This document shows positions 1-31,731 of a DNA stretch of 64,000 bases, piece after piece. A model generated the notes under the pieces. It was not told the DNA's origin. It saw only the letters and a program-made list of their open reading frames with translations, and ran no database searches. How positions within the stretch are numbered: the first letter of the stretch is position 1; each line of letters opens with the position of its first letter. Made by a program: the position numbers and the translations under genes. This stretch comes from Escherichia coli (GTDB taxonomy: Bacteria; Pseudomonadota; Gammaproteobacteria; Enterobacterales; Enterobacteriaceae), in NCBI RefSeq assembly GCF_030384885.1, contig NZ_CP128613.1, one strand, 5' to 3'.

Positions 1-1979
1 ATATCATCCAGAACAGCGGTGCCGCTCTCCAGACGAGCACGGCTAACGGTATTGAAATCAGCGGTACTCACCAGTACGGCACCTTTTCCATTGCCGGAAA
101 TTTAGCGACCAATGCGTTGCTGGAAAATGGCGGTAATTTATTGGTATTAGCAGGTACCGAAGCTCGCGATTCCACGGTTGGCAACGGTGGGGCAATGCAA
201 AACCTGGGTCAGGACTTCGCCACAAAGGTTAATTCCGGTGGGCAATATACCCTTGGTCGGTCAAAAGATGAGTTTCAGGCTCTGGCCCGGGCAGAAGATC
301 TACAGGTCGCTGGCGGGACGGCAATCGTCTACGCAGGTACGCTGGCGGATGCATCGGTCAGTGGCGCGACAGGAAGCCTGTCGTTAATGACGCCACGGGA
401 TAATGTTACGCCAGTTAAACTTGAAGGGGTGGTCCGGATTACCGATAGCGCGACATTAACTATCGGAAATGGCGTCGATACGACGCTTGCCGACCTGACG
501 GCTGCCAGCCGGGGCAGTGTCTGGCTTAACAGCAATAATTCCTGTGCAGGCACCAGCAACTGCGAATATAGAGTAAACAGTTTGCTCCTCAACGACGGTG
601 ATGTTTATTTATCAGCACAAACAGCAGCGCCTGCCACAACTAACGGTATCTACAATACGCTGACCACCAGTGAACTTTCCGGCAGCGGTAATTTCTACCT
701 GCATACCAACGTTGCAGGCTCCCGGGGCGATCAACTGGTCGTCAACAACAACGCCACTGGCAATTTTAAAATCTTTGTTCAGGATACCGGCGTCAGCCCT
801 CAGTCTGACGACGCGATGACGCTGGTGAAAACAGGGGGAGGGGATGCTTCGTTTACGCTGGGTAATACCGGCGGTTTCGTTGATCTTGGGACCTATGAGT
901 ATGTCCTGAAAAGCGACGGCAACAGCAACTGGAACCTGACCAATGATGTCAAACCCAACCCGGATCCCAACCCAAATCCGAAACCGGATCCAAAACCAGA
1001 CCCAAAACCGGATCCGAAACCAGACCCGACTCCCGATCCAACGCCGACACCCGTCCCGGAGAAACGCATCACGCCTTCTACGGCAGCCGTACTCAATATG
1101 GCAGCAACATTACCGTTGGTCTTTGATGCTGAGCTAAACAGTATTCGCGAGCGGTTGAACATAATGAAAGCGAGTCCACACAACAATAATGTCTGGGGGA
1201 CGACGTATAACACCCGTAATAATGTCACCACCGATGCGGGTGCCGGGTTTGAGCAGACGCTGACCGGAATGACGGTGGGGATCGATAGCCGTAATGATAT
1301 TCCTGAGGGGATTGCGACGCTGGGCGCTTTTATGGGTTATTCCCATTCACATATCGGTTTTGATCGTGGAGGACATGGCAGTGTGGGCAGTTATTCTCTG
1401 GGGGGCTATGTCAGCTGGGAACATGAAAGTGGTTTCTATCTGGACGGTATCGTGAAGCTGAACCGCTTTGAAAGTAACGTAGCCGGTAAAATGAGCAGCG
1501 GTGGAGCCGCCAACGGCAGTTATCGCAGCAACGGGCTGGGTGGTCATCTTGAAACCGGGATGCGATTTACCGATGGTAACTGGAACCTGACGCCGTATGC
1601 ATCGTTAACGGGGTTCACCGCTGATAACCCCGAATATCATTTATCCAATGGTATGGAATCGAAATCAGTCGATACCCGCAGTATATATCGTGAACTGGGC
1701 GCAACGCTGAGTTACAACATGCGTCTGGGGAACGGCATGGAAGTTGAGCCGTGGCTGAAGGCGGCTGTGCGCAAAGAATTTGTCGATGATAACCGGGTGA
1801 AAGTGAATAATGACGGTAATTTTGTCAATGATTTGTCGGGCAGACGTGGAATATACCAGGCAGGTATTAAAGCCTCATTCAGCAGTTCGTTAAGCGGGCA
1901 TCTCGGGGTAGGGTATAGCAATGGTGCTGGTTTGGAATCCCCGTGGAACGCGGTGGCTGGTGTGAACTGGTCGTTCTGA
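1..1979 (+). CDS. AIDA-I/Ag43-type autotransporter adhesin, C-terminal part (5' end lies outside the window)
   Basis: Frame is open from position 3 with no upstream stop; Gly/Thr/Asn-rich passenger repeats, a Pro-rich linker (PNPNPKPDPKPDPKPDPTPDP), and a C-terminal beta-barrel domain ending in NWSF (aromatic terminal residue typical of autotransporters). Confidence 0.8.
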   Translation, partial: IIQNSGAALQTSTANGIEISGTHQYGTFSIAGNLATNALLENGGNLLVLAGTEARDSTVGNGGAMQNLGQDFATKVNSGGQYTLGRSKDEFQALARAEDLQVAGGTAIVYAGTLADASVSGATGSLSLMTPRDNVTPVKLEGVVRITDSATLTIGNGVDTTLADLTAASRGSVWLNSNNSCAGTSNCEYRVNSLLLNDGDVYLSAQTAAPATTNGIYNTLTTSELSGSGNFYLHTNVAGSRGDQLVVNNNATGNFKIFVQDTGVSPQSDDAMTLVKTGGGDASFTLGNTGGFVDLGTYEYVLKSDGNSNWNLTNDVKPNPDPNPNPKPDPKPDPKPDPKPDPTPDPTPTPVPEKRITPSTAAVLNMAATLPLVFDAELNSIRERLNIMKASPHNNNVWGTTYNTRNNVTTDAGAGFEQTLTGMTVGIDSRNDIPEGIATLGAFMGYSHSHIGFDRGGHGSVGSYSLGGYVSWEHESGFYLDGIVKLNRFESNVAGKMSSGGAANGSYRSNGLGGHLETGMRFTDGNWNLTPYASLTGFTADNPEYHLSNGMESKSVDTRSIYRELGATLSYNMRLGNGMEVEPWLKAAVRKEFVDDNRVKVNNDGNFVNDLSGRRGIYQAGIKASFSSSLSGHLGVGYSNGAGLESPWNAVAGVNWSF

Positions 1980-1991
1980 CCATCAACGAAA

Positions 1992-2016
1992 AAGCCCACA
2001 TCTGTGGGCTTTCATA
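1992..2016 (+). terminator. Rho-independent terminator downstream of autotransporter gene
   Basis: Hairpin gcccaca-tct-gtgggc followed by a short T-rich tract. Confidence 0.45.
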
Positions 2017-2139
2017 TCACCAGGAGCCGCGGCTCCTTTGCGTATCCTTTTATGTCTCCTCACCGTCTGGTCGGTGTCTTGCTGAGACTTCTAACTTCCT
2101 GTTTTTGTTGGTGTTGTCCTTACACCGTCCAATCATGAT

Positions 2140-2183
2140 TGGTGGGCTGGCGGGAGTTGAACCCGCGTCCGAAATTCCTACAT
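2140..2183. repeat. Direct repeat of the ssrA 3' end (att site of the ssrA-integrated island)
   Basis: tggtgggctggcgggagttgaacccgcgtccgaaattcctacat matches the terminal 44 nt of ssrA at 16498-16541 with one mismatch. Confidence 0.85.
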
Positions 2184-2310
2184 ACTAATAATATATCTTT
2201 AAAATCAAAATATTCTATTATTTATCAATGTATTATGTTTATGTGGTGTTAAGGGGTTTATATGGGTTTTAGTTCTCTGCCGCCAAAATGCCGCCAAAAA
2301 AATTGAATGG

Positions 2311-2336
2311 TAAAACGCCAGTTCGTTGAACTGGCG
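2311..2336 (-). terminator. Rho-independent terminator of the dcd-like/thyX-like operon
   Basis: Perfect 9-bp stem cgccagttc/gaactggcg with 3-nt loop, followed on the minus strand by a T run; lies just 3' of the thyX-like stop. Confidence 0.6.
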
Positions 2337-2346
2337 AGATCTTGTC

Positions 2347-3114
2347 TTATTGTTTTATTATCTTAACGTGCGCCGTTCCTCCATTGACTTTTTCGAAATC
2401 TTGGAACAAGGCAGGGGCATCTTGAGTTACAATATCGTAAAGTTTTTCTGAAACTGTTCTCATTTCATAGTCACCCTGTATTGCTCCTCTCATTTCGAAG
2501 AAGTGTCGAATTGCGCGAGCATTTGCTGTGACGATTATTTTTGTCTCGGTTGCATTAGGCAATATAGAGCGAGAAGCGCTTCTTAAGGCCCGCATTTTTT
2601 CTTTTTTGTTCTCATACGATTGGTTTTCACGGATTTTTTTCAAGGATTGCTTATAAAAATCCAGACTACTTTCAATATGTTGGCACCATGACTTAAACAA
2701 TTCTGGGTCATTTTTTACTTCTATAGGGGCTACGAATTCAGCATCGGATTCATCATGATACTGTTGGGATAACTGGCTATATGAAAAACCAGCTCTATGC
2801 CGAACTAGCTGGTGTGTAAATGCACGAGATACCCCAGTAATTAAAAAGGTCCAGTTCAAATGTTCTAAGACACTTTCATGCCCTTGAATAATTAAATTGT
2901 TGATATATTGACTTGTAGTCCGTGGAGACTGCTTATCCTCTCCAAAAGACATATAACATAGCCTGCCAGCGGCCTCTACCAGAAGCTCAGCTTCGGTCGC
3001 CTGCCCTTTGCGAACCCATTGCAATGATGATGTGTTTAAAAAATCATCAAAAACATTACTTTCAAATGAAGGGTGTGATATGCATTTTACTGATAAATCA
3101 GAGATTTTTATCAT
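2347..3114 (-). CDS. ThyX-like flavin-dependent thymidylate synthase homolog (divergent)
   Basis: 255 aa. Contains EHLNWTF...HQLVRHRAGFSYSQLSQQY, matching the ThyX signature (RHR followed by a conserved Ser) as recalled from Thermotoga ThyX, plus an N-terminal AAGRLCYMSF block. It has a one-residue insertion after RHR and Gln where the SxRY Arg is expected. Start codon lies 2 nt after the upstream gene's stop; SD gggag. Confidence 0.7.
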   Translation of the reverse strand: MIKISDLSVKCISHPSFESNVFDDFLNTSSLQWVRKGQATEAELLVEAAGRLCYMSFGEDKQSPRTTSQYINNLIIQGHESVLEHLNWTFLITGVSRAFTHQLVRHRAGFSYSQLSQQYHDESDAEFVAPIEVKNDPELFKSWCQHIESSLDFYKQSLKKIRENQSYENKKEKMRALRSASRSILPNATETKIIVTANARAIRHFFEMRGAIQGDYEMRTVSEKLYDIVTQDAPALFQDFEKVNGGTAHVKIIKQ

Positions 3115-3116
3115 TT

Positions 3117-3902
3117 TTACTCCCGTATAGCTTTTGGGGTGCTTACTTTAGCATCAACCTTTGGTTCGTTTGATTTAGCATTTTTTAGTAATTCAACGGT
3201 GCTTTTTAGGCTATTTATTTCATTTTGTTGAACTTTTATTGTTAATTCAAGATCTTTTGTACTACTGACATTACTGGATACTATTTGAAATAAGAAAGGA
3301 ATTGCTAGGGTTATCAACGTTAGCATTAAGGCTGCTATCGCAATTATAAAGCCAGTTTTTTTCGCAATGATTTTATTGATTTCTTTCGGAAGTCGTTTAT
3401 CAAGTCCTGCAAAATCCTTTCCCATTCTAGAAAGTTGATCATCATCCAATTTATTTACGATTTTTCCTTGGTAACCTTTAGTCGGTATTATTGTTTTAAA
3501 TAATAACATTCGGGCTACTGCTGAATTTTGTGTCAATGAGAATGGTTCTTTTGACATATTTACAAGATATATTGAAATTATGCCATTATATCCAGGGTCA
3601 ATATGCCCTGGATTCGTCATGATAATTCCATTTTTTGATAGTGTGTTTCTTGGAAATATTACACCAGCTAAATTTTTTGCAAGTTGGAATTTTTCATTTA
3701 ACTCTAATATTACAGTTTCCCCTGGCATCAGGATATGGTTGTTACGTGTTTTTTTATTGTCTTGACAGTCTGGTATATGTATTGTTTTTACAGAGAGATC
3801 AATGCTTGCAGATTGAACTTTAAATGTTCCATTTAATACCGTTAATGGATCAAAAATGTTGCCTCGCTGAATTTCATCATTGATTTCTATTTCAGACAGC
3901 AT
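3117..3902 (-). CDS. dCTP deaminase/dUTPase-fold protein with C-terminal transmembrane helix and coiled-coil tail
   Basis: 261 aa. N-terminal ~140 aa carry Dcd-family motifs (SIDLSV; LMPGETVILE; GHIDPGYNGIISIYLVN; LTQNSAVARMLLF), comparable to the E. coli Dcd IDPGW-G region. The C-terminal ~110 aa contain a 22-residue hydrophobic segment (GFIIAIAALMLTLITLAIPFLF) followed by a heptad-like polar stretch. Confidence 0.7.
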   Translation of the reverse strand: MLSEIEINDEIQRGNIFDPLTVLNGTFKVQSASIDLSVKTIHIPDCQDNKKTRNNHILMPGETVILELNEKFQLAKNLAGVIFPRNTLSKNGIIMTNPGHIDPGYNGIISIYLVNMSKEPFSLTQNSAVARMLLFKTIIPTKGYQGKIVNKLDDDQLSRMGKDFAGLDKRLPKEINKIIAKKTGFIIAIAALMLTLITLAIPFLFQIVSSNVSSTKDLELTIKVQQNEINSLKSTVELLKNAKSNEPKVDAKVSTPKAIRE

Positions 3903-3928
3903 ATCAAAATCCTATATTTGTAAAGTTA

Positions 3929-4942
3929 TTATAAATTAGCCAGAGGGTTTTTTATTACTGCATCTTCAAGATGCTCTGGGGAAAAATGTGCATAAATCAT
4001 AGTCATTTTTATATCAGAGTGGCCTAAAATATCTCGTAAAACCAAAATATTACCACCATTCATCATAAAATGGCTGGCGAATGTATGGCGCAGAACGTGA
4101 GTGCATTGGCCCTCTGGTAACTCAATGTCAGCTCGCTTTACTGCTCGTTCAAAGGCTTTTCTGCAAGGAGTGAATAACTTCCCTCTGTTCTTAGGGAGTT
4201 CGTCATACAGATCCTGAGATATCGGCACGGTACGGTTTTTCTTGCCCTTAGTCTTGGTATAGGTGATCCGGTATTTCGATAACTGATGGCCCTGCAGATT
4301 TTCGGCTTCACTCCAGCGCGCGCCGGTGGCCAGGCATATTTTTGTAATTAAAAGTAGACTGGGGCTTTGAGAATCAGCACAGGCATCCAGCAGACGTTTA
4401 ATTTCTTCCGGGGTCAGGAACGACAGTTCACCCTCAGCAATTTTAAATGTTGGCAGCCCGGCAAGCGGATTGGGGGCTGACCAGTGGCCCAACTTTTTCA
4501 GTGTGCCAAAAACAGATGATAGGTTGCGCTGTTCAAGGTTTACAGTGCGGGGCTTAACGGGCGACATAAGCGTGCCCTCTTCATTTCGCACTTCACCTTT
4601 TAGCCGCGCTTCTCGGTATTTAGTAAAATCACCGGCTGTCAGCTCTGAGGCGATGGGATCGCCTAGACCATTACAGATAATTCTAAGTTTCGCCATGAGG
4701 CGCTTGGGGTCTGCGAGTGTTTGACCATACAGGGAATACCACTGCTCAATTAATTCTGATAGGTGTCGCCGATCTTCCTTTTCCCCCAGCCATGGCTTTT
4801 TGTTCACTTCTTCCATTGTGAAGCTTTCAAAAGCAATGGCTTCGCCTTTCGTAGCAAATTGCTTACGCACGCGCTTGCCATTGCGTCCATGGGGATAGCA
4901 CTCGCACAACCATTTACCGTTTGGCTGTTTTCTGACAGTCAT
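3929..4942 (-). CDS. int: Phage integrase, tyrosine recombinase (P2/186-type)
   Basis: 337 aa. Catalytic residues in conserved context: ATGARWSE (Arg), HVLRHTF (His-x-x-Arg), MIYAHF (Tyr). Directly downstream of the cI-like gene as in the coliphage 186 lysogeny operon. Confidence 0.85.
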   Translation of the reverse strand: MTVRKQPNGKWLCECYPHGRNGKRVRKQFATKGEAIAFESFTMEEVNKKPWLGEKEDRRHLSELIEQWYSLYGQTLADPKRLMAKLRIICNGLGDPIASELTAGDFTKYREARLKGEVRNEEGTLMSPVKPRTVNLEQRNLSSVFGTLKKLGHWSAPNPLAGLPTFKIAEGELSFLTPEEIKRLLDACADSQSPSLLLITKICLATGARWSEAENLQGHQLSKYRITYTKTKGKKNRTVPISQDLYDELPKNRGKLFTPCRKAFERAVKRADIELPEGQCTHVLRHTFASHFMMNGGNILVLRDILGHSDIKMTMIYAHFSPEHLEDAVIKNPLANL

Positions 4943-4944
4943 GT

Positions 4945-5577
4945 TTAGATACTCTTTATTACTTTGACTGCACGCCCAATAACTTCCACATCATCAGTAG
5001 AGCACTCGAAAGACGCTTCATCTTGATTTACTACAATCTTATTGCCGGGAATCCGCATGATTTTTGCAACAATAATCATTCCATCAATATTGATAAGCCA
5101 GAATCCATTGCTGACCTGTTTAATTGATTTATCGATGAGATAACAATTAGTAGGGGTTTCTAAGAACATCAATTCTTCATAATCTGCAGGTAATATGCTG
5201 TGGTCTAGGAAAATCTCTTCATCAATACTGAGTTGTCCATTCTCCAGGGTTCCTTTAGGAATAGCTGGAGTTATGAGTTTGGATAACGGTTTAATTGCTT
5301 GTTTGTTCTCATTATGAGAACTTTTCTCAGGCTCAGCTCCTCCTTTCATGCTTCCCTGTCCTGTAGCTAACCAAAGCAACGAAACACCGGTTTCTAGTGC
5401 GCACTGAATTATCCAGTCAGCAGGAAAGCTGTCACGTAACACTCTGTTTGCCATAGTGCTTTTTGAGACATTCAGGTGCTCGCTTAATGCCTGCTTAGTT
5501 GTGAATCCATAAGCCTCAAGCAGCCTTTCAATAGCTGCCTTACCTCCCGTATCGGAACCCATTCTGATGTTTAACAT
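4945..5577 (-). CDS. cI: Phage CI-type repressor (186 cI-like)
   Basis: N-terminal HTH region (LEAYGF...CALETGVSLLWLATGQG) resembles the coliphage 186 CI N-terminal domain; divergent from the apl-like gene. Confidence 0.65.
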   Translation of the reverse strand: MLNIRMGSDTGGKAAIERLLEAYGFTTKQALSEHLNVSKSTMANRVLRDSFPADWIIQCALETGVSLLWLATGQGSMKGGAEPEKSSHNENKQAIKPLSKLITPAIPKGTLENGQLSIDEEIFLDHSILPADYEELMFLETPTNCYLIDKSIKQVSNGFWLINIDGMIIVAKIMRIPGNKIVVNQDEASFECSTDDVEVIGRAVKVIKSI

Positions 5578-5698
5578 TGGTGATCTCCATTTGACAATCT
5601 TGAATCAAGATCGTAATGTCTTCATGTCTCTTGATGTGAGAGTTTAAGAGACGGGCTAAAACGAACTAACACGCACACAAAGTAAGAGATACTGCACT

Positions 5699-5941
5699 AT
5701 GAGTACTGATATTTCAATTCGTGTACCAAAAGAGATGGCTACGCCTGCAGAGTTCGCAGAGTGGGAGGGTATTTCCCGCGGCTCTGTTTACCAAAAAATT
5801 CACCATGGTCAACTTGCTAAGTACATGGTCAAGAAAGAAAAAAACAAAGGCCGCGTAAGCCTGCGTTATCTGATGTACAAAACCGATCAGGTCCGTGAAT
5901 CCCTCGGTCATTCCAACTTCCGCGTCATTGTTGGTAAGTAA
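5699..5941 (+). CDS. Apl/Cox-like small DNA-binding protein (excisionase/early repressor)
   Basis: 80-aa basic protein, first gene of the rightward early operon divergent from cI, by synteny with 186 apl / P2 cox. Confidence 0.5.
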   Translation: MSTDISIRVPKEMATPAEFAEWEGISRGSVYQKIHHGQLAKYMVKKEKNKGRVSLRYLMYKTDQVRESLGHSNFRVIVGK

Positions 5942-5973
5942 GTTCAATTATGGGAACTTTCTAAGGGGGCACC

Positions 5974-6483
5974 ATGTTTGATTACAAGATTTCCAAACAT
6001 CCGCATTTCGATGAAGCCTGTAGGGCTTTTGCACTGCGCCACAACCTGGTGCAACTGGCAGAACGTGCAGGCATGAATGTGCAGATTCTGCGGAACAAGC
6101 TGAACCCAGCTCAACCTCATTTATTAACTGCACCAGAAATCTGGTTGCTTACCGATCTGACTGAAGATTCAACGCTGGTAGATGGTTTTCTGGCTCAGAT
6201 TCACTGCCTGCCATGTGTACCGATTAATGAGGTGGCAAAAGAGAAACTGCCACATTACGTCATGAGTGCAACCGCAGAGATCGGGCGTGTCGCGGCAGGT
6301 GCGGTTTCTGGCGATGTAAAAACCAGTGCAGGCCGTCGTGATGCGATCAGCAGCATTAACTCTGTTACACGACTGATGGCGCTGGCTGCTGTTTCATTGC
6401 AGGCCCGTTTACAGGCTAATCCTGCGATGGCGAGTGCGGTTGATACCGTGACTGGCCTCGGTGCTTCATTCGGTTTGCTGTGA
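5974..6483 (+). CDS. cII: CII-like lysogeny establishment regulator (186-type)
   Basis: 169 aa, positioned after the apl-like gene; size and position match 186 CII as recalled. Confidence 0.5.
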
Positions 6484-6490
6484 GGTGCTT

Positions 6491-6787
6491 ATGCTGATGA
6501 AAGAACCATCATTTGCATCGCTCCTGGTAAAACAAAGTCCGGCAATGCACTACGGTCACGGCTGGATCATGGGTGAGGATGGTAAACGCTGGCATCCGTA
6601 CCGTTCACAAGATGAATTGCTGTCTGAATTGACCACGAGGAAACGGAGAAAGTCCAAATGTATGCGGCAGAAAATAAAGTGGTTTATCACTTTCGTTACA
6701 GAGGGGAGAATTATTCAGTACCTGAAGATGATTTGCTCTGTTGCTATCCGTCGTTGTCGGGCGATGGTAGCTACTTTTTCACGCTAA
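6491..6787 (+). CDS. Hypothetical prophage early protein
   Basis: ORF with SD gaggtg 4 nt upstream of ATG at 6491; overlaps the next ORF out of frame, so one of the two may be spurious. Confidence 0.3.
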   Translation: MLMKEPSFASLLVKQSPAMHYGHGWIMGEDGKRWHPYRSQDELLSELTTRKRRKSKCMRQKIKWFITFVTEGRIIQYLKMICSVAIRRCRAMVATFSR

Positions 6788-6882
6788 AGGATGGAACCTT
6801 TATACGTGGTGAAAAAGTACAAGAAGTGATGCGTATAAAGACATCACCTCTTGAACGTTATCGGCGAAATATTTATCGGTAA
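6658..6882 (+). CDS. Hypothetical prophage early protein
   Basis: 74-aa ORF with SD ggag upstream. Confidence 0.35.
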   Translation: MYAAENKVVYHFRYRGENYSVPEDDLLCCYPSLSGDGSYFFTLKDGTFIRGEKVQEVMRIKTSPLERYRRNIYR

Positions 6883-7121
6883 CGATCTATCAGTGTCTGT
6901 ATCAGATGAGTGAATTCTTGTTGTTTAACCGAACCTAAAGGAAGTTTGTTTAATTCTTCGCGGAGGAGCTCAAAAAATGCTGATTGATTTGCTGAGTCAG
7001 TTCGAAATAAGGAGTGGATCAGACCTGAAACAAGAATTCGTTGAACAGCAACCTCATCGCGAAGACTGGAGATCTCGTTTTCAAGTTGCTCTATACGCTC
7101 TCTTTCAACCGGGTTCAACAT
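6873..7121 (-). CDS. Hypothetical small coiled-coil protein, antisense to the early operon
   Basis: 82-aa ORF with heptad-like ERIEQLENEISSLRDEVAVQR; its orientation is opposite to the surrounding early genes. Confidence 0.3.
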   Translation of the reverse strand: MLNPVERERIEQLENEISSLRDEVAVQRILVSGLIHSLFRTDSANQSAFFELLREELNKLPLGSVKQQEFTHLIQTLIDRYR

Positions 7122-7202
7122 TGATGATTCCTTCTAGCTATCAATATGTTGGTAATGGATCATATCAAAAATTTTTTAGTAGATGTGTTGTGGGATGCAT
7201 AA

Positions 7203-7544
7203 ATGGCTATTGAAGGCACTGCGGCGACTGTTCCATTAAGCCCCGGTGAACGCCTGAATGGACTTAATCACATTGCGGAGTTAAGGGCGAAAGTTTTTGG
7301 CCTGAATATTGAGTCAGAGCTTGAGCGGTTTATTAAAGATATGCGTGATTCACGGGATATTAATAGCGAACAAAATAAACGGGCACTGGCTGCCATATTC
7401 TTTATGGCAAAAATTCCAGCTGAACGTCATAGCATCAGCATTAATGAGCTGACCACTGACGAAAAGCGGGAGTTGATTAAAGCAATGAATCATTTTCGTG
7501 CAGTGGTGAGCTTATTTCCCAGACGGCTAACCATGCCGAATTAA
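7203..7544 (+). CDS. Hypothetical prophage early protein
   Basis: 113-aa ORF in the early operon. Confidence 0.4.
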   Translation: MAIEGTAATVPLSPGERLNGLNHIAELRAKVFGLNIESELERFIKDMRDSRDINSEQNKRALAAIFFMAKIPAERHSISINELTTDEKRELIKAMNHFRAVVSLFPRRLTMPN

Positions 7545-7611
7545 CCAACTAATGAAATTAATGGCGTAAACCCGCCGGGCATCCCTTTATCTAAATTCAG
7601 GAGAATTGATT

Positions 7612-7845
7612 ATGCGTAATATTGAAACCCTCTCGACCAAAACCGGACCGGATGACGCAGGGCTTAATATTTTACTGACAGAGGCTCGTCTGGAAGAACG
7701 CCGGGCAAGGGCTGAAGCAATGGCAGCTCGCCTTGATAGCCTGGCGTGTCATATCACATCCCGCCAGCTAACCCACGTCGAAGCGGCAGAACTGCTTCGT
7801 GTGACTGCTGAAGCAATCCAGAACGAAGCGCAGGAGATCCACTGA
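7612..7845 (+). CDS. Hypothetical prophage early protein
   Basis: ATG at 7612 preceded by SD aggaga; 77 aa. Confidence 0.4.
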   Translation: MRNIETLSTKTGPDDAGLNILLTEARLEERRARAEAMAARLDSLACHITSRQLTHVEAAELLRVTAEAIQNEAQEIH

Positions 7846-8072
7846 TGGCTGATGCAATGGATCTCGTACAGCAGCGCGTTGAAGAAGAACGCCAACGCCA
7901 TATCCGTGCTGCCCGTGCCAAAACGCCGGGCGTGTCCCGCGTGCTTTGCATTGAGTGTGAAGCGCCAATTCCGCCAGCACGCCGCCGTGCCATTCCGGGT
8001 GTGCAGCTTTGCATTACCTGTCAGGAAATCGCAGAGCTGAAAGGCAAACATTACAACGGAGGTGCTGTATGA
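7845..8072 (+). CDS. TraR/DksA-family C4 zinc-finger protein (phage)
   Basis: CIECEAPIPPARRRAIPGVQLCITC: two CxxC pairs with the spacing typical of TraR/DksA zinc fingers, common in P2/186-like early regions. Confidence 0.65.
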   Translation: MADAMDLVQQRVEEERQRHIRAARAKTPGVSRVLCIECEAPIPPARRRAIPGVQLCITCQEIAELKGKHYNGGAV

Positions 8073-8926
8073 GCACCATCCTGAAATGGGCGGGAAATAA
8101 AACTGCCATAATGTCCGAACTGAAAAAACATCTTCCTGCTGGCCCGCGACTGGTTGAACCTTTCGCGGGTTCCTGTGCTGTGATGATGGAGACGGATTAT
8201 CCCAGCTATCTGGTTGCGGATATTAATCCTGATTTAATCAACCTCTATAAAAAGGTTGCCGCTGATTGTGAATCGTTTATATCTCGCGCCAGAGTTTTAT
8301 TTGAGATCGCAAACAGGGAGGTGGCTTATTACAACATAAGGCAGGAGTTTAATTACTCAACTGAAATTACTGATTTCATGAAAGCGGTATATTTCCTGTA
8401 TCTCAATCGTCACGGTTACCGTGGTTTATGTCGCTATAACAAGAGCGGGCATTTCAACATTCCCTACGGTAATTATAAAAATCCGTATTTCCCTGAAAAA
8501 GAAATTCGCGCATTTGCAGAAAAGGCCCAGCGAGCAACGTTTATCTGCGCCAGCTTTGATGAAACGCTGGCGATGTTGAAGGCGGGGGATGTGGTGTATT
8601 GCGATCCGCCGTATGACGGTACGTTTTCCGGCTATCACACTGACGGCTTCACTGAAGATGACCAGTATCACCTGGCATCTGTTCTTGAACATCGGTCATC
8701 AGAAGGACATCCGGTCATTGTTTCTAACAGTGACACATCCCTGATCCGTTCGCTGTATCGCAATTTTACTCACCACTACATCAAGGCAAAACGCAGCATC
8801 GGTGTGGCAGCTGGCGAGGGTAAATCAGCAACAGAAATCATTGCTGTTTCCGGGCCGCGCTGCTGGGTGGGATTTGATTATTCGCGTGGCGTGGATAGTT
8901 CTGCCGTGTACGGAGTACGTGCATGA
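8069..8926 (+). CDS. dam: DNA adenine methyltransferase (Dam-like, phage-encoded)
   Basis: N-terminal [11 protein letters not shown]...EPFAGS (AdoMet-binding motif) and the catalytic DPPY motif (VYCDPPYDG); start overlaps the stop of the upstream ORF. Confidence 0.8.
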
Positions 8927-11337
8927 GTCATGCCGATATGAACAACTGCTGCGGCTTTAACGAAGCTGCCGCATCGTTCTCATGGAACAGCCCGAAAAAG
9001 GCCATTAACCCTTATCTGGACCCGGCGGAAGTTGCGCCGGTTTCTGCGCTTTCAAACCTGATCACTCTGTACGCTACTGATAACGAGCAGGAACAACTGC
9101 GCCGCGAGGCACTGAGTGATCAGGTCTGGGAGCGTTATTTCTTTAATGAATCCCGTGATCCTGTCCAACGCGAAATGGAGCAGGATAAGCTCATTAGCCG
9201 GGCAAAGATGGCGCATGAGCAGCAGCGTTTTAATCCAGACATGGTCATTCTGACTGACGTCAACGCCCAGCCTTCCCATATCAGCAAGCCGCTGATGCAA
9301 CGTATTGAATATTTCAGCAGCCTGGGCAGGCCAAAGGCTTATTCCCGCTATTTGCGTGAGACGATTAAGCCATGTCTGGAACGACTGGAGCATGTACGCG
9401 ACAGCCAGCTATCTGCATCTTTTCGTTTTATGGCAAGCCATGAAGGGCTGGACGGTCTGCTGATCCTGCCTGAAATGAGTCAGGATCAGGTGAAACGCCT
9501 GTCTACCCTTGTCGCTGCGCATATGAGCATGTGTCTTGATGCCGCTTGTGGTGATTTGTACGCCTCCGATGATGTTAAGCCAGAAGAAATCCGCAAGACA
9601 TGGGAAAAGGTGGCTGCAGAAACCCTGCGACTGGATGTCATACCGCCTGCGTTTGAGCAACTCCGCCGGAAAAGAAACCGCCGCAAACCTGTGCCTTATG
9701 AACTCATTCCGGGTTCGCTGGCGCGTATGCTGTGCGCCGACTGGTGGTATCGGAAATTATGGAAGATACGTTGCGAATGGCGGGAAGAGCAGTTGCGTGC
9801 TGTCTGCCTGGTCAGCAAAAAAGCATCTCCCTATGTCAGCTATGAAGCCGTGATGCATAAACGTGAGCAGCGCCGTAAGTCGCTGGAGTTTTTCCGTTCT
9901 CATGAACTGGTGAACGAAGACGGCGACACGCTGAACATGGAGGATGTGGTAAACACCAGCAGCAGCAACCCGGCGCATCGCCGCAACGAGATGATGGCCT
10001 GTGTTAAAGGCCTAGAGCTTATCGCGGAAATGCGTGGTGACTGCGCCGTTTTCTACACCATCACCTGTCCGTCACGTTTCCATTCCACGCTAAATAACGG
10101 CAGGCCAAACCCGACCTGGACCAACGCGACAGTAAGACAAAGCAGCGATTATCTGGTCGGCATGTTTGCTGCATTTCGTAAGGCTATGCACAAAGCCGGG
10201 TTGCGCTGGTATGGCGTGCGGGTGGCTGAGCCGCATCATGACGGCACAGTTCACTGGCACCTGTTGTGTTTCATGCGCAAAAAAGACCGCCGCGCCATTA
10301 CTGCATTGTTGCGTAAGTTTGCCATCCGTGAAGACCGCGAGGAGCTGGGCAATAACACGGGGCCACGCTTTAAGTCTGAGCTGATAAACCCGCGCAAAGG
10401 AACGCCGACAAGCTACATTGCGAAATATATCAGTAAGAATATTGACGGGCGTGGTCTGGCTGGCGAGATCAGTAAGGAAACGGGTAAATCCCTGCGTGAT
10501 AACGCTGAATACGTTAATGCCTGGGCGTCTCTGCATCGTGTTCAGCAATTCCGCTTCTTTGGCATTCCGGGGCGTCAGGCTTACCGTGAACTGCGATTGC
10601 TGGCTGGTCAGGCGGCAAGGCAACAGGGTGACAAAAAAGCAGGTGCGCCGGTACTGGATAACCCGCGCCTTGATGCCATCCTGGCTGCTGCTGATGCTGG
10701 TTGTTTTGCCTCCTACATCATGAAGCAGGGCGGCGTACTGGTTCCCCGCAAATATCACCTCATCAGAACCGCTTATGAAATCAACGAAGAGCCGACCGCC
10801 TATGGCGATCACGGTATTCGTATTTATGGCATCTGGTCACCCATTGCAGAGGGCAAGATCTGCACTCATGCAGTGAAGTGGAAAATGGTTCGTAAGGCCG
10901 TTGACGTTCAGGAGGCGGCAGCCGACCAGGGCGCTTGCGCCCCTTGGACTCGTGGCAATAACTGTCCCCTTGCTGAAAATTTGAACCAACAGGAGAAAGA
11001 TAAATCAGCTGATGGGGACACCAGAACGGACATTACCCGCATGGATGACAAGGAGTTGCACGATTACCTGCACAGTATGAGCAAAAAAGAGCGCCGGGAA
11101 CTGGCTGCAAGGTTACGCCAGGTGAAACCGAAACGGCGTAAAGACTACAAACAGCGAATTACAGACCATCAGCGACAGCAGCTCGTCTATGAACTGAAGT
11201 CCAGGGGATTTGATGGCAGTGAGAAAGAAGTCGATTTGCTCCTTCGCGGTGGCAGTATTCCGTCAGGAGCAGGCCTGCGTATTTTCTATCGGAACCAGCG
11301 TCTGAAGGAAGATGATAAGTGGCGGAACCTGTATTAA
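8923..11337 (+). CDS. Phage replication initiation protein (P2 gpA-like rolling-circle endonuclease)
   Basis: 804 aa. HUH-type motif VHWHLLCF and active-site Tyr block [12 protein letters not shown], as in P2/186 gene A. Confidence 0.8.
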
Positions 11338-11429
11338 TTACGCGGGTTAACAATTCGTGCCCTTAATAATACCAGGCATATCAGGCTGATGAATGTAAAA
11401 AAACGTTTTACATCAGTAAGATTATTATA

Positions 11430-11449
11430 TACTGTAAATATAAACAGTG
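11430..11449 (+). promoter_or_regulatory. LexA (SOS) box upstream of small ORF plus dinI-like gene
   Basis: tactgtaaatataaacagtg: CTGT-N8-ACAG with an AT-rich spacer, ~40 nt upstream of the ATG at 11490. Confidence 0.65.
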
Positions 11450-11489
11450 GTTATCTATACAGTATTGCTTTGGTGTCATAGGAGGAAAG

Positions 11490-11678
11490 ATGCAGGACTA
11501 TTTTTTGGAGTCTTTGAAGCTCCAGCGCATTGATTTTTTTCTTAAGCTTGTAGCGGCTAGTGAGTGTAGTGATGAAGAGAAGGGGCTGGCTCTGCAGTGG
11601 GTTTCTGAACTGACAGATGAACTCATGGCAAAAATCAGAACCCACGAATACAACCGCTCAATGGATGTCATCAGCTGA
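11490..11678 (+). CDS. Hypothetical SOS-regulated small protein (possible Tum-like antirepressor position)
   Basis: 62-aa ORF with SD aggagg, immediately downstream of the LexA box; position analogous to 186 tum, but no recognised sequence similarity. Confidence 0.4.
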   Translation: MQDYFLESLKLQRIDFFLKLVAASECSDEEKGLALQWVSELTDELMAKIRTHEYNRSMDVIS

Positions 11679-11688
11679 GGTGACTTTT

Positions 11689-11922
11689 ATGCGCATTGAA
11701 ATAATGATCGATAAAGAGCAGAAGATTAGCCAGTCTACCCTGGACGCCCTTGAATCCGAGCTTTACCGCAATCTGCGCCCCCTGTATCCCAAAACGGTAA
11801 TCCGTATCCGTAAAGGTAGCTCTAACGGTGTGGAACTGACCGGACTGCAACTGGACGAAGAAAGAAAACAAGTGATGAAAATTATGCAGAAGGTGTGGGA
11901 AGACGACAGCTGGCTGCATTGA
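11689..11922 (+). CDS. DinI-family protein
   Basis: 77 aa, MRIEIMIDK...LDALESEL...KVWEDDSWL parallels E. coli DinI (MRIEVTIAK...IDALAGEL...ETWESADDWF). Confidence 0.7.
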   Translation: MRIEIMIDKEQKISQSTLDALESELYRNLRPLYPKTVIRIRKGSSNGVELTGLQLDEERKQVMKIMQKVWEDDSWLH

Positions 11923-12035
11923 TTTTGTCAATAGACGCTTGTTTTTACTAATCAAAAAGGGTTACATATGAGTGAGAGGCGATGTCAATCAGATATCGCC
12001 TTGTTTTTTGTCAAGAAAAGAATAATAGGCTAAAA

Positions 12036-12713
12036 ATGAAAATTAATAATGTAGCGTTACCAATATCTCTTGCTGTAATCCTAACTGGTTGCGTGCCACA
12101 TGCTTCTAACCGAAATATCACTGCTATTGAAGTGGTGAAGCCTGCTATTGGGCAAAGTGCTACCGCCTACATGGGCGATCCCATTATCACATCTGCTACT
12201 GGATTTAAAACGGACGTACTAGAACTTGGTGCGGCTAATGGTGCATTGTCTTCTATCGCTGCTGGTACATATTGCAGTGAGGGGAATGGAATTTACCGCA
12301 ATTATCATAACCCTCAAGCTGTTGCGTTAAAAAATCTCTATGGGCAAATCGGTAACTATGTTGATTATGTTAGTTACGATGCTGCAAAAAATGAGATATC
12401 ACCGCCAAATGGTACTTCTTATACTGCATCAGAAATTTCTATCAAACGTGTTCCTGATGGGCTGTGTCGAGTTAGTAACTCATTGGTTAAGACTATCGAA
12501 TACAATGGAAATGCAGGCGGTGTAATGAAGTTCACCTATCGTGAATTTGCAAACGATATGGCTCGTGCAGCATTTACAACAGATTTTTCTGTAGATTCTA
12601 AGGGAAGTGACGTTATCGCTTACAAAGGTGCCAAGTTCAAAGTGAACAAGGCTGATAACTCGTCTATTTCTTATACAATTATTTCTGGCTTTGACAAGGC
12701 TGTCACGTTCTAG
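12036..12713 (+). CDS. Prophage-encoded lipoprotein (moron)
   Basis: Signal peptide MKINNVALPISLAVILTGC with lipobox LTGC; the remainder is Ser/Thr/Asn-rich with no recognised domain. Confidence 0.6.
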   Translation: MKINNVALPISLAVILTGCVPHASNRNITAIEVVKPAIGQSATAYMGDPIITSATGFKTDVLELGAANGALSSIAAGTYCSEGNGIYRNYHNPQAVALKNLYGQIGNYVDYVSYDAAKNEISPPNGTSYTASEISIKRVPDGLCRVSNSLVKTIEYNGNAGGVMKFTYREFANDMARAAFTTDFSVDSKGSDVIAYKGAKFKVNKADNSSISYTIISGFDKAVTF

Positions 12714-12805
12714 GTTTCACGCTTACTGAGTATGTTACGATTTTGCACATTCTGCATAAACGCGCATGTCTATGCTGCATGAGATCGCATGATCGTTTGA
12801 GGATC

Positions 12806-12833
12806 TTTTGTGTTAAGGCCCGCCAGTTCTGGC
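12806..12833 (+). terminator. Rho-independent terminator after lipoprotein gene
   Basis: GC-rich stem gcccgcc/ggcgggc followed by tttt. Confidence 0.6.
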
Positions 12834-13038
12834 GGGCTTTTGCGTAGATCATGCAGGTGCATGAAAACCACTACATAAAGCGGGCAGGCGTGGCGGGGAT
12901 ACGAGCGCGCGTTATGACAAATAGATGATTAGCCTGATTTATTCACAGCTGTATAAATGATCACCTTGTAATTAGGTAAGTAATGTCTTCTATTATCATT
13001 GATTTGATAGGATTAATCTGTTTTTTGAGGATTAGAGG

Positions 13039-15375
13039 ATGATTGAAGAGGTAGTTATTGACAAAGTAGGCTCATATAATGGCCCTACTCAGCTTTTACA
13101 TGGGCTTTCTAAATTTAACTATTTATATGGAGCTAATGGTGCAGGTAAAACAACTATAAGTAAAATTATTAATGACCCTGAACAATATCCAACATGTCCG
13201 ATTAAATGGAAAAATAATATATCTTTAATAAGCTACGTATATAATAAAGATTTTGTTGAAAGAAATTTTAGTCAAGATAAAATTAAAGGTGTATTTACCC
13301 TTGGTAGCGATCTTAAGGAGGATGAAGAGAAATTAATATCTCTTGAAGAAGAAAAAAATAAGCTAATAGAATCTATTATAGCAAAGGAAAAGCTAATAGA
13401 TGGTGGTGATAATATATTAGGCGTTGTTAAACAAATCGAAGACCATGAAAAATCTTTTAAAGATTCATGTTGGAAGCAAAAAGTAAAACATGATAATGTG
13501 TTCTCAAAGGCTTTTGAGGGATTAAGGAATAGTAGTGAAAAATTTAAAGCTAGAGTGTTGGCTGAGTATGAAAATAACACATCAGAAGTTTGCTCAATAG
13601 CAGAGCTAATTGAGAAAGCAAAAATTGTTTTTTCTACTGAATTGACATCACATGTATCAATTACAATTCCATCCTTCAATGGGATAGATGATATTTTGAG
13701 TAGGGAGATTTGGAGTGAGCGTATTCTAGGGAAAAAAGACGTTAGTGTTTCAGACTTAATTACAATGCTCAATAACAGTGATTGGGTTAAGGAAGGTTTA
13801 ACATATTTCAGTAAATCTAATCCCAAGTGCCCATTCTGCCAGCAGGATGTAAATGATAATATATTTGATAATCTATCATCATATTTTGATAAAACATATG
13901 AGTTAAAAAAAAGAGAAATCGATGCATTGGTTTTACAATATGAACATCAACTTAATAATATCTTGCAGGCGATAGATGATATAAGGGCGATTAAATCTCC
14001 ATTCATAAATTATGAAGTGTTTGAGGATAAGGCTAAGATAGTATTATCTGAATTAAACAAGAATTTTGAATTGGCAAAAAATAAACGCAATTTTTTAAGT
14101 GAATCAGTTCATTTTAGTGACTTAAGTGAAGTTGTTGATGATTTTATTTCTTTTTTGAATGATTCAAATCTATTGATAGATAATAATAACAAAATACACA
14201 GTAATAGAAAGGTAGAGGCTAGTAATCTTTCTAATCAGATATGGGCATATATCGTAAAGGTGGAGTTAAAGTCTGAAATAACTTCTTACCGTAGCGAATC
14301 TGATAAATTTAATAGGAAGTTACAAGGGCTTAAATCTGGGTTAGAGGAAGACAAAAAGAAGTTAATGTTAAATGCTTCGGCTATTGAGGCAATTGAGTCT
14401 AATAAAACCAGTACTCTTCCAACTATTACAAAAATTAACAAGATTCTGGATTCTTATGGCTTCAAAAATTTTTACTTAAAACCCTCCGAAGATAAAAAGC
14501 ATTATATGATAGTGAGAGATAGTGGAGATAATGCTCGTACAACCCTTAGCGAGGGAGAAAAGACATTTATCACTTTTTTGTATTTTTATAGCCTTGTTAG
14601 AGGGAGTGATAATGCATCAGGTGTTTTAGATGATCGTGTTGTAGTATTTGATGATCCAATTTCAAGTTTAGATAGTGATATTCTGTTTATTGTAAGTTCG
14701 TTGATTAAAGATTTAATGGAGGATGTTCGTAAGGATGAAGGAAATATTAAGCAAATTATATTCCTTACACATAATATTTATTTTCATAAAGAGTTGACTT
14801 TTAATACTAAAAGATCCGGTAATCAAGCAATGAAAGAGGAGACTTTTTGGATTGTAAGGAAAAAAGGGAAGGTCTCATATCTTGAAAAGTGCGAATCAAA
14901 CCCAATAAAAACGTCTTATGATTTGCTCTGGTGCGAATTGAGAAGAACAGATATTAATAATAATACTATACAAAATACAATGCGAAGGATTTTGGAGAAT
15001 TACTTTAAGATATTAGGTGGGATGGATATTAGGAAGCTTGAATGTCATTTTTATGGTGATGAAAAAATCATATTTAAATCTTTAGTGTCATGGATTAATG
15101 ATGGTTCTCATTTTGCAGGTGATGATCTTTATATGAATTTAGATACGGAGTCTGTGCAAAAATATTTAATTGTTTTTCAGAAGATATTTGAGTGTAGTGA
15201 GCATACTGCCCATTACAAAATGATGATGGGTGAGTTTTATAGACCGTTAAATGAGTCACTTCATCTACAAGATGAGTTTGATATTGATGATAGTGCGAAT
15301 GATGAGTATGCTTCGTCAAAAATTGAGATAGAAGATGGAATAAACACATCTCTACATAGTAATACATATTTGTAA
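13039..15375 (+). CDS. RloC/PrrC-like ATPase with CxxC zinc hook (putative anticodon nuclease / abortive-infection protein)
   Basis: 778 aa, very AT-rich. N-terminal Walker A GANGAGKTT; long coiled-coil region containing CPFC; D-loop/Walker B-like VVVFDDPISSLDSD; C-terminal region with RRILENYF and downstream His residues, reminiscent of the PrrC/RloC Arg-Glu-His nuclease motif as recalled. Confidence 0.55.
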   Translation: MIEEVVIDKVGSYNGPTQLLHGLSKFNYLYGANGAGKTTISKIINDPEQYPTCPIKWKNNISLISYVYNKDFVERNFSQDKIKGVFTLGSDLKEDEEKLISLEEEKNKLIESIIAKEKLIDGGDNILGVVKQIEDHEKSFKDSCWKQKVKHDNVFSKAFEGLRNSSEKFKARVLAEYENNTSEVCSIAELIEKAKIVFSTELTSHVSITIPSFNGIDDILSREIWSERILGKKDVSVSDLITMLNNSDWVKEGLTYFSKSNPKCPFCQQDVNDNIFDNLSSYFDKTYELKKREIDALVLQYEHQLNNILQAIDDIRAIKSPFINYEVFEDKAKIVLSELNKNFELAKNKRNFLSESVHFSDLSEVVDDFISFLNDSNLLIDNNNKIHSNRKVEASNLSNQIWAYIVKVELKSEITSYRSESDKFNRKLQGLKSGLEEDKKKLMLNASAIEAIESNKTSTLPTITKINKILDSYGFKNFYLKPSEDKKHYMIVRDSGDNARTTLSEGEKTFITFLYFYSLVRGSDNASGVLDDRVVVFDDPISSLDSDILFIVSSLIKDLMEDVRKDEGNIKQIIFLTHNIYFHKELTFNTKRSGNQAMKEETFWIVRKKGKVSYLEKCESNPIKTSYDLLWCELRRTDINNNTIQNTMRRILENYFKILGGMDIRKLECHFYGDEKIIFKSLVSWINDGSHFAGDDLYMNLDTESVQKYLIVFQKIFECSEHTAHYKMMMGEFYRPLNESLHLQDEFDIDDSANDEYASSKIEIEDGINTSLHSNTYL

Positions 15376-15382
15376 TTTTATT

Positions 15383-15413
15383 GCAATTGCCAGTAGCAAC
15401 AATACGGTACTGG
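15383..15413. terminator. Bidirectional hairpin between convergent ATPase and portal-fragment genes
   Basis: 9-bp perfect inverted repeat ttgccagta...tactggcaa. Confidence 0.4.
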
Positions 15414-15424
15414 CAACTAATATT

Positions 15425-15964
15425 TTAGTTAAGCTCATATGGAGAAAATTCTATAAGTTTCTCCCCGAGCCATGCGTTTATTTCCATAAATCGTTTTTGC
15501 AAAGGAATTAATTCATTTATCACAAAAACCTTACTAGCCTTCTCCACATCCCCAAACCCCCCAACATTATTAGGCATTATCCCCATCATTTGCGGCGGCA
15601 CACGGTGTGCCGCCATCATGTCGTCCCGGCTCACGTTCTTGATATTCAGAAACTCATCCTTCGCCGCGACTTCTGACAACGGGATAATCTGAAGCCCGTC
15701 CTTTTTGCCGTTAGGAGAGTACATAAACAGGTTGCGGAAGTTGCCTGGCCCTTTGGCACTTTTCATTGCGTTGCGGAGGTTGTTCACATCTTCTTGGTTC
15801 TGTGCGGCATCGGTCATGTACATGATGAAACCTGCATGGCTGCCGTTGATGTAATACTTACGGCGGAACAGTGTGGCGGACTCGTTGAGCAGGGCTGACG
15901 GGATGGCAGAGAGATAACCTGGCAGGCCGTAGATCTCCTGGTTGATGTCCGGTTCCGCCCTTAA
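15425..15964 (-). pseudogene. Phage portal-like (P2 gpQ-like) gene fragment, 5'-truncated
   Basis: The reading frame stays open upstream of the first Met to ~15964 and then hits a stop with no start. Orientation and position (leftward, after the replication/cargo region) match P2 Q; the family assignment is from synteny and is tentative. Confidence 0.4.
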
Positions 15965-16153
15965 TCATCTCAACCATGCGTTACAGCTCGATCCCCGCTG
16001 TGGCGTGAAAAAAGACAAACAGCAGCTGGAGCGCAGACTGCGCAATGACAGCCGCTGACAGAACGTGCCCCCGCGCACGGGCGGCACGGGGTGGCGAAAG
16101 GCACAGCCACATCAAAACCCCGTCCACCGCCCTTTATTTCAGGAGAAAGCAGC

Positions 16154-16354
16154 ATGAAGTTTGTTGCGCCAGAACAGGCACCGGAACAGGCGGAAATCAT
16201 CAGAAACACGCCGTTCTGGCCTGATGTGGACCTGTCGGAGTTTCGCAGTGTCATGCGCACTGACGGCACGGTGACGCAGCCGCGTTTAAAGCAGGTTGCG
16301 CTGTCGGCAATTTCGGAGGTCAACGCACCGATACGACCATTTGCATTGATGTAA
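16154..16354 (+). pseudogene. Phage head-completion-like (P2 gpL-like) N-terminal fragment
   Basis: 66-aa ORF with SD aggaga; IIRNTPFWPDVD...PRLKQ...ISEVNA resembles my recollection of the P2 gpL N-terminus; truncated relative to ~170 aa. Confidence 0.3.
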
Positions 16355-31686: not shown

Positions 31687-31731
31687 TTCTTTCTCCTTTT
31701 TCAAAGCATAGCGGATTGTTTTCAAAGGAGG

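Follow-up and report, generated by a model that had tools for sequence, protein, structure and literature searches.

A probable fossil array of ssrA-integrated elements beside the autotransporter gene ypjA of Escherichia coli

We analysed a 64,000-nucleotide (nt) stretch of Escherichia coli DNA (contig NZ_CP128613.1, assembly GCF_030384885.1; hereafter the window), whose left part holds, in this order, the 3' part of the autotransporter gene ypjA (or ehaD), a short spacer, a displaced 3' fragment of ssrA (the gene for transfer-messenger RNA, tmRNA), a remnant of a P2/186-like prophage and the intact ssrA (table 1). The DNA on the ypjA side of the displaced fragment, which continues outside the window towards the gene glaH, is best explained as an ancient, decayed and now fixed tandem array of elements at ssrA, lying beyond the current P2-like element; we give this reading a probability of about 0.65. 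The chances are about even for a more detailed account, in which the whole K-12-type glaH-ssrA interval would be what several layers of ssrA-integrated elements left behind as a fixed fossil, YpjA/EhaD a chromosomal paralogue left over from a phage cargo slot, the terminating sequence behind ssrA a phage attachment (attP) arm, and excision of the P2-like element an event that installs ΔU357 and turns tmRNA off. The gene ypjA/ehaD, the ssrA pseudogene psaA, the island CP4-57 and tandem arrays at the tmRNA gene have all been described already. In the literature we found no account of the glaH-ssrA interval as a fossil array, although coverage was incomplete and an earlier description is possible.

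The element that occupies ssrA at present is delimited by a confirmed att repeat: 38 nt are identical between positions 2146-2183 and 16505-16542, a match to the repeat arose in none of 100 shuffles, and the TGGTGG preceding the exact repeat matches as well, minus one base (TGGTGG-GCTGG versus TGGTGGAGCTGG). The orientation of the repeat is as expected, which identifies 2140-2183 as a displaced 3' fragment of ssrA. The Islander criteria ask for an integrase and a target-gene (tDNA) fragment for each member of an array, and the modern P2-like element has an intact ssrA, the 3' fragment in the same orientation and an integrase between the two. An artificial island-free site, made by joining four pieces of the window (ypjA 3' end, spacer, ssrA and smpB), was compared with 5426 complete E. 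coli genomes, the survey set for all frequencies given here, and was recovered as one contiguous alignment in 1388 of them; in one such genome, 160 nt separate the ypjA stop codon from an intact ssrA that has T357. Whatever is integrated today therefore ends, on the outer side, at the repeat at 2140-2183. An initial annotation of the window had read it as a possible junction between two tandemly accreted elements, a proposal that is partly supported: tandem accretion at ssrA appears to be real on the left of the repeat but ancient, decayed and fixed, and there is no second island in the working sense, since neither a second integrase nor an intact island is found and the island-free genomes carry ypjA all the same.

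The same annotation had noticed that the sequence beyond the repeat does not return to conserved core, and the population data agree with it. The ypjA end and the spacer are present in 2796 genomes (~52%), and a short haplotype, with 333 bp in place of the block that contains ypjA, is found in 1100 (~20%). In the ypjA-less strain AVS0542, only 683 bp separate glaH from ssrA. On the ssrA side, 151 nt of these correspond to window positions 1989-2139, at ~90% identity; on the glaH side, the alignment extends up to ~200 bp upstream of glaH; and the 333 bp in the middle are unique, with no similarity to the ypjA block or to Escherichia phage LLS in blastn and tblastx searches. The variable block itself (ygaQ-ileY-ypjCB-pinH'-ypjA) measures 10.7 kb and has its right edge at ~1989, ten bases past the ypjA stop, not at att. 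Leftwards from ypjA, four genomes show a short open reading frame (ORF), the serine-recombinase fragment pinH, ypjCB, the transfer RNA (tRNA) gene ileY, a ygaQ-like pseudogene, glaH and the gab genes, and none of the four has an annotated integrase between glaH and the att repeat, the serine-invertase fragment being all that is present. What lies upstream of ypjA is thus a set of pseudogenes and mobile-element relics and not the core housekeeping genes that would have spoken against accretion. The guanine-plus-cytosine (GC) content is 49% in ypjA, 35% in ypjCB and 38% in ygaQ, compared with 52-58% in the adjacent core genes. The two groups of haplotypes also differ in the flanking DNA: the ssrA-smpB flank (16543-17560) is 94.3-94.6% identical between ypjA-bearing and ypjA-less genomes (B2-type, such as CFT073 and AVS0542), and the glaH side is 91.5-93% identical. 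It is unusual for core DNA of E. coli to diverge so deeply, which suggests that the haplotypes around the hotspot are of long standing.

Between ypjCB and pinH, ~5.5 kb to the left of the att repeat, we identified a fossil att junction. Window positions 16436-16512, which comprise the ssrA-proximal arm of the P2-like element and the first 15 nt of ssrA, give a 77-nt match at 91% identity (blastn) to positions 26592-26667 of the locus of strain 2013C-4282. The relic of the P2-like arm is 62 nt long and 91-96% identical; F1005, TUM12355 (96%) and K-12, where it sits between pinH and ypjB, have it too, as do 25 of 25 host flanks containing ypjB in IMG/VR. Next to it comes a decayed ssrA core of 14 nt that agrees with the ΔT scar described below at 11-13 of 14 positions, the K-12 version (TGGTGGGCTGGCAG) being identical to psaA at 13 of 14, and that marks the junction of P2-like and P4-type elements. 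The ~60 nt past the core are collinear with the attR-side arm of CP4-57-type islands (z = 5.0; none of 2000 shuffles reached the score). An IS3-family fragment comes after the relic, and then the invertase fragment. A P2-like arm, a ΔT-type core and a P4-type far arm, in this arrangement, are the product expected when a CP4-57-type element enters an ssrA gene that already holds a P2-like prophage. A blastn-short search with the 363-nt ssrA as query had found no ssrA fragment of 15 nt or more in the 30 kb left of ypjA, a result first taken as refuting the tandem idea; the decayed junction surfaced only through the match of the phage arm. The further ssrA-end repeat that the initial annotation proposed to look for on the left is thus represented by a degenerate core, not by an intact att repeat. 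As the ypjA-bearing DNA also lacks an integrase of its own, the older layers left of att are fossils and not islands by the Islander criteria.

In a simple array, the DNA touching ssrA is the youngest layer, and the spacer was therefore searched against phage genomes. The last 151 nt of this 160-nt spacer, here called F, are 86-87% identical to positions 26314-26465 of phage LLS (PQ299149.1), with the same left boundary. In LLS, the F-like arm is followed by a 39-nt tmRNA pseudogene, an annotated attP, an integrase and an excisionase, and partial matches to F were found in phages Ayreon and phiNP (Citrobacter). At least 120 IMG/VR contigs contain a conserved 21-mer of F; the F-bearing contigs form 43 sequence types at 97% identity and have more than 35 different left neighbours. 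To the right of F they carry an ssrA gene, either that of E. coli or that of another species (94-97% identity), or else the core and an integrase. The host F of the ypjA haplotype and that of the ypjA-less haplotype are only 86.7% identical, and both have nearer relatives among the phage-borne variants (up to 93% and 88.7%) than in one another. When the minus strand of 1975-2145 is folded (overall z = -4.0 versus shuffles), a hairpin of 10 bp appears, with UUUUU directly after it; a simple terminator scan had not called it. This hairpin probably terminates the ssrA precursor in island-free genomes, and would be weaker as a terminator for ypjA on the plus strand. If F is a phage arm, as these matches suggest, phages would supply the 3' trailer and the terminator of ssrA.

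The DNA to the left of F is also ordered as in phages. In many F-bearing prophages, a distance of 2.0-4.5 kb separates F from a full-length Fin-type invertase gene on its left, encoded on the same strand, and the interval between the two carries unrelated cargo in extant phages: an EcoRII restriction-modification pair, UmuC or an ImmA-like protein. The 150-nt pinH fragment, 5.0 kb left of F, is 83-84% identical to the invertase genes of F-bearing phages over 149 nt. Thus, the block retains the attP arm F beside the ssrA core and, upstream of the arm on the same strand, a trace of the Fin-type invertase; it has no integrase, excisionase or structural genes, hence our use of the term remnant. 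By its similarity at both ends, ypjA with its upstream leader is a duplicate of an autotransporter locus adjacent to minE, which persists as a ~350-nt remnant in many E. coli and as an intact gene in E. albertii. Positions 31635-31989 of the 2013C-4282 locus align with positions 4885-5238 of the minE-adjacent locus at 95.2% (blastn), and the 352 nt upstream of ypjA are 88.9% identical to that locus; both ends of the cassette are contiguous there (4536-5238), and the paralogy extends no further than the left edge of F. With its start 38 nt past the invertase fragment and its end at the first base of F, the 4.96-kb cassette fills the slot between two phage-derived pieces. The 95% identity at the 3' end of ypjA suggests that gene conversion with the minE-adjacent locus occurred recently.

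From these homologies, positions and population frequencies we infer the following stratigraphy. Counting outwards from ssrA, the first layer would be F, left by a temperate LLS-like phage as its ssrA-proximal attP arm; it would supply the terminator behind ssrA. The second would be ypjA, the copy of the minE-adjacent locus, sitting in the phage cargo slot between tail-fibre invertase and att arm, and the third the pinH invertase fragment, abutting the IS3 fragment. In the fourth, a ΔT357-type ssrA core would link two arms: the far-end arm of an element of the CP4-57 type (P4-integrase) and the ssrA-proximal arm of a P2-like prophage that is older. The fifth would be made of the low-GC pseudogenes ypjCB and ygaQ with ileY, and would reach to ~200 bp from glaH. 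Each newcomer would have recombined at the ssrA 3' end, rebuilt ssrA from its own attP copy and pushed the older elements outwards, and later deletions, at least one of them associated with the IS3 fragment, would have removed the integrases and most of the phage genes. The P2-like prophage would then be the oldest, the CP4-57-type element would come next, and the youngest would be an LLS-like prophage carrying the minE-locus autotransporter as cargo. If so, island boundaries based on att repeats mark the youngest layer only, and the DNA beyond the repeat, which is usually treated as backbone in K-12, bears the scars of at least three older integrations at ssrA. This reading also offers a plausible origin for ypjA/ehaD, an often-scored E. 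coli adhesin gene with a patchy distribution.

The most serious alternative, which we consider unlikely, is that this is an ordinary flank: F would be the native trailer and terminator of ssrA, copied into attP by LLS-like phages, ypjA a non-universal neighbour, the block an unrelated indel, and the fossil junction the product of an IS-mediated rearrangement. Several observations fit it and weigh against a fossil array. F abuts an intact ssrA in island-free genomes of both haplotypes and, since it adjoins ssrA in the ypjA-less haplotype too, it predates the block or is independent of it; the right edge of the block lies 151 nt from att, not at att. The GC content of ypjA is native-like and near-genomic, which suits a chromosomal duplicate but also a plain chromosomal gene, and what ypjA duplicates is a chromosomal locus. 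Moreover, the IS3 fragment adjoins the relic, and an IS3-mediated rearrangement of the region is seen today in TUM12355. F could be a native trailer captured by LLS-like phages, in which case the ypjA block could lie outside the att array and the fossil junction could have arrived by rearrangement. The array also leaves the origin of ygaQ-ileY-ypjCB unexplained, the relatives of ypjB in IMG/VR being only E. coli host flanks at contig edges; its LLS-like remnant lacks an integrase, and no fragment marking its far end was found; no extant phage with ypjA in the cargo slot was found; and ~1500 genomes match neither haplotype at 80% coverage. On the other hand, an ordinary flank could have an ssrA array junction on the left of ypjA only after an additional, unobserved translocation. 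This alternative leaves unexplained the 84% nt match of the invertase fragment to F-bearing phages, in the same order and orientation, and accounts neither for the cassette filling the gap between two phage-derived pieces nor for host F variants being interleaved with phage ones.

The search for an outgroup took two routes and yielded none. The YpjA protein, searched against GTDB genomes, returned only an E. albertii locus and a contaminated contig of a metagenome-assembled genome (MAG), and the E. albertii relative was rejected as an outgroup for the ssrA site because its locus is the minE-adjacent paralogue. SmpB relatives led to one genome without ssrA beside smpB and to one with a P2-like prophage, and so to no native trailer. 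The contaminated contig, 2.5 kb long, belongs to a MAG labelled Collinsella sp., encodes a 97% identical fragment of YpjA, and almost certainly entered the bin as contamination from E. coli. An enterobacterial assembly with a 96% identical SmpB has no detectable ssrA by smpB, where an AT-rich stretch of 600 nt is followed by the gene of a BapA-like adhesin of more than 4,300 amino acids.

A discrete second island comparable to CP4-57, with the autotransporter as cargo and a further intact ssrA repeat, is very improbable. Real tandem arrays do exist at ssrA: in TUM12355, a perfect 45-nt copy of ssrA comes after the same P2-like remnant and directly adjoins a further integrase gene. Here, however, no integrase is found anywhere from glaH to the att repeat, the decayed 14-nt core takes the place of an ssrA fragment long enough for blastn-short, K-12 annotation puts ypjA outside CP4-57, and ypjA stands beside ssrA in the 1388 genomes without any island. 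In the TUM12355 array (positions 18606-20046 and 40512-44632 of two loci of that strain), the second island has its own integrase, a type I restriction-modification system and ParB genes; at its far end, IS3 copies have cut ypjA down to its first 441 nt. Just as improbable is an island integrated in ileY instead of ssrA: ileY is a gene of the block, its 3' end faces ypjCB and ypjA, and low-GC DNA flanks it, but such DNA occurs on both sides of it, the block contains no direct repeat of its 3' end (the best blastn-short match, 14 nt with a mismatch, is at chance level), and its absence from the ypjA-less haplotype makes it a part of the variable block, not the target.

The deletion of one base in the displaced fragment deserves separate treatment, as it corresponds to tmRNA ΔU357, and the last 13-14 nt of the scar at 2140-2183 are the same as in K-12 psaA. 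The ΔT357 scar has been described for CP4-57 and other P4-integrase islands (PMC10107115, Table 1). P2-integrase prophages at ssrA (Fels-2, SopEΦ) are listed in the same table with a perfect CGCCAGCTCCACCA copy left behind, and a ΔT scar with a P2-integrase prophage is listed once, in Shewanella (PMC10107115). Excision of CP4-57 inactivates tmRNA (PMC10107115). Given the ΔT357 form of the scar and the CP4-57-like island at the ssrA site of the sister strain 2013C-4282, a CP4-57-type element was probably present at the site earlier than, or together with, the P2-like remnant. At present, the ΔT357-bearing end adjoins a P2-type element in which int and an apl-like gene are retained. A crossover at any point of the 38-nt identity should produce a defective ssrA end, and excision of the P2-like element should inactivate tmRNA as reported for CP4-57. 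The scar at a P2-type element therefore predicts that, in E. coli, the switching off of tmRNA by excision extends beyond CP4-57-type islands.

Comparison with the closest flanks indicates that one island has replaced another at ssrA very recently, within one lineage. The closest match to the flanks is 2013C-4282 (NZ_CP027579.1), to which positions 1-2162 and 16495-52947 are 99.8-99.95% identical, with 14 mismatches in 36 kb; its island is CP4-57-like and measures 26 kb, against a 14-kb P2-like remnant in the window. Relatives of this remnant occupy the ssrA site in TUM12355 and F1005, and the closest match to the island, TUM12355, has no ypjA beside it. The exact ypjA/P2-like junction of the window occurs in no complete E. 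coli genome searched. The remnant encodes thyX, a dCTP-deaminase-like protein, int, cI, an apl-like protein, cII, a Dam methylase (dam), the replication protein gpA and a PDC-S06 ATPase; its portal and head genes are fragments only. Between attR and int (2347-3902, minus strand), the thymidylate synthase ThyX stands next to a 261-amino-acid protein with a dCTP-deaminase/dUTPase fold and a hydrophobic/coiled C-terminal tail. The pair has no PADLOC match, the same slot in F1005 has an annotated anti-phage dCTP deaminase, and the two genes may form an undescribed nucleotide-manipulating defence or counter-defence pair. A 778-amino-acid AAA_13 ATPase (13039-15375, plus strand) matches the PADLOC candidate defence family PDC-S06 (E-value 1e-266). 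Further right, an ORF for a DUF6630 family protein (22371-23012, minus strand) lies between grpE and yfjD; it is also found in 2013C-4282 and is missing from K-12-type layouts such as F1005 and TUM12355.

The autotransporter gene enters the window with its reading frame already open at the left edge and ends with a stop codon at 1977-1979. The window holds the 3' 43% of the gene, the remaining 2.6 kb on the 5' side being outside; the full length is 4,569 nt in 2013C-4282. In complete E. coli genomes, genes annotated as adhesin-like autotransporter YpjA/EhaD are 98.8-100% identical to the window over 2139 nt. This identity, together with the position between pinH/ypjCB and ssrA, identifies the ORF as the orthologue of ypjA/ehaD, a known E. 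coli adhesin gene of the AIDA type; its neighbouring genes are the same in 2013C-4282, F1005, K-12 and UID2309220033. The AIDA/Ag43-type autotransporter with a proline-rich linker reported by the initial annotation is thus confirmed by Pfam domains, by the linker KPNPDPNPNPKPDPKPDPKPDPKPDPTPDPTPTP and by nucleotide identity. The linker sits between passenger and barrel, and the Pfam scan gave nothing for it beyond a sub-threshold low-complexity match to Trypan_PARP. Two features of the type Va (AIDA-I-type) class are present: a C-terminal 12-strand β-barrel domain (PF03797), and a β-helical passenger with AIDA-type repeats and an autochaperone region (PF16168, PF03212). YpjA is accordingly predicted to be a classical type Va protein, whose β-barrel should insert into the outer membrane and export the β-helical passenger. 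YpjA/EhaD has been reported as a biofilm-promoting adhesin (PMC12547504).

Table 1. Features of the left part of the window discussed in the text
Feature	Positions	Strand	Basis or remarks
ypjA/ehaD, 3' part, 1,979 nt (658 codons + stop)	1-1979	+	ORF/translation, Pfam, nt identity
End of passenger domain (AIDA repeat and pertactin-like region)	60-941	+	Pfam
AIDA repeat, PF16168, E 2e-19	~60-242 (residues 20-80)	+	Pfam on translation of 3-1976
Pertactin-like autochaperone region, PF03212, E 2e-45	~573-941 (residues 191-313)	+	Pfam
Proline-rich linker (PNPD/PKPD/PTPD)	951-1052	+	Translation, KPNPDPNPNPKPDPKPDPKPDPKPDPTPDPTPTP
Outer-membrane β-barrel translocator, PF03797, E 3e-46, full-length profile match	1191-1910 (residues 397-636)	+	Pfam
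Right end of ypjA cassette (last 345 nt of ypjA + 9-10 nt)	1635-1988	+	95% identical to minE-adjacent remnant
F, 151-nt spacer abutting ssrA 3' end	1989-2139		Homologous to ssrA-proximal attP arm of LLS-like phages
Putative intrinsic terminator hairpin, GCCCAC/GTGGGC stem, then T5 on minus strand	1989-2013	-	Fold
attR, displaced ssrA 3' fragment, 44 nt, one-base deletion (tmRNA ΔU357)	2140-2183	-	Repeat comparison
Defective P2/186-like prophage, 14.3 kb	2184-16497		ORFs, Pfam, PADLOC, related elements, phage matches
P2-type integrase	3929-4942		Pfam
ssrA-proximal arm of P2-like element	16436-16497		91-96% identical fossil copy left of ypjA, outside the window
ssrA (tmRNA), intact, tag ANDENYALAA	16498-16860	-	ARAGORN, sequence

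The layout of K-12 (ssrA, CP4-57, psaA, ypjA, pinH, ypjB/ypjC, ileY) is the nearest known counterpart and shares with the window the same ypjA, the 160-nt spacer and the ΔT357 pseudo-ssrA end; further out, K-12 has pinH as the same fragment and, between it and ypjB, the fossil junction. The two differ in the island, a 22-kb P4-integrase CP4-57 in K-12 and a 14.3-kb P2/186-like remnant in the window, and in the att identity, 14 and 44 nt, respectively. In NC_000913.3, CP4-57 spans 2755941-2777971, the 14-nt pseudo-ssrA psaA 2777972-85 and ypjA 2778146-2782726; K-12 ypjA thus lies past psaA, outside CP4-57. We therefore rejected ypjA as a CP4-57 cargo gene, as it is not between attL (ssrA) and attR (psaA), and the claim that CP4-57 carries an autotransporter gene near its far end does not hold: the comparison with K-12 proposed by the initial annotation leads to the same gene, but outside the annotated island.

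Among other known systems, the window element resembles the prophages Fels-2 and SopEΦ in its P2-type integrase, its 186-like cI/cII region and a 44-45 nt block of ssrA identity, and departs from them in that its displaced copy has the ΔT scar typical of P4-integrase islands whereas theirs is perfect. The phages LLS, Ayreon and Citrobacter phiNP have, as in the window, the 151-nt arm beside an ssrA-like core, terminator hairpin included; unlike in those phages, the arm alone survives in the window, the invertase is reduced to a 150-nt fragment outside it, and the cargo is a 4.6-kb autotransporter gene absent from the extant relatives examined. YpjA itself shows nothing unusual when compared with AIDA-I/Ag43-type (type Va) adhesins and with EhaD of enterohaemorrhagic E. 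coli O157:H7, the order of AIDA repeats, pertactin-like region, proline-rich linker and β-barrel being the same, although the window holds the C-terminal 43% of the gene only. The EspC pathogenicity island of enteropathogenic E. coli likewise places an autotransporter gene on DNA inserted at ssrA (PMC7545054), but that island, of 15 kb, is discrete, has an integrase and carries the gene of a SPATE protease, whereas ypjA encodes an AIDA-type adhesin on an integrase-less fossil. Finally, the logic is that of Islander-type arrays, in which successive elements hit the same ssrA 3' end, rebuild the gene and displace its fragment, so that older elements lie further out. The basic understanding of tmRNA-gene islands is unchanged, and the glaH-ssrA interval provides a detailed worked example of it; in contrast to those arrays, the older layers here have no integrases and a single decayed fragment, and they are fixed in about half of the species instead of being strain-specific.

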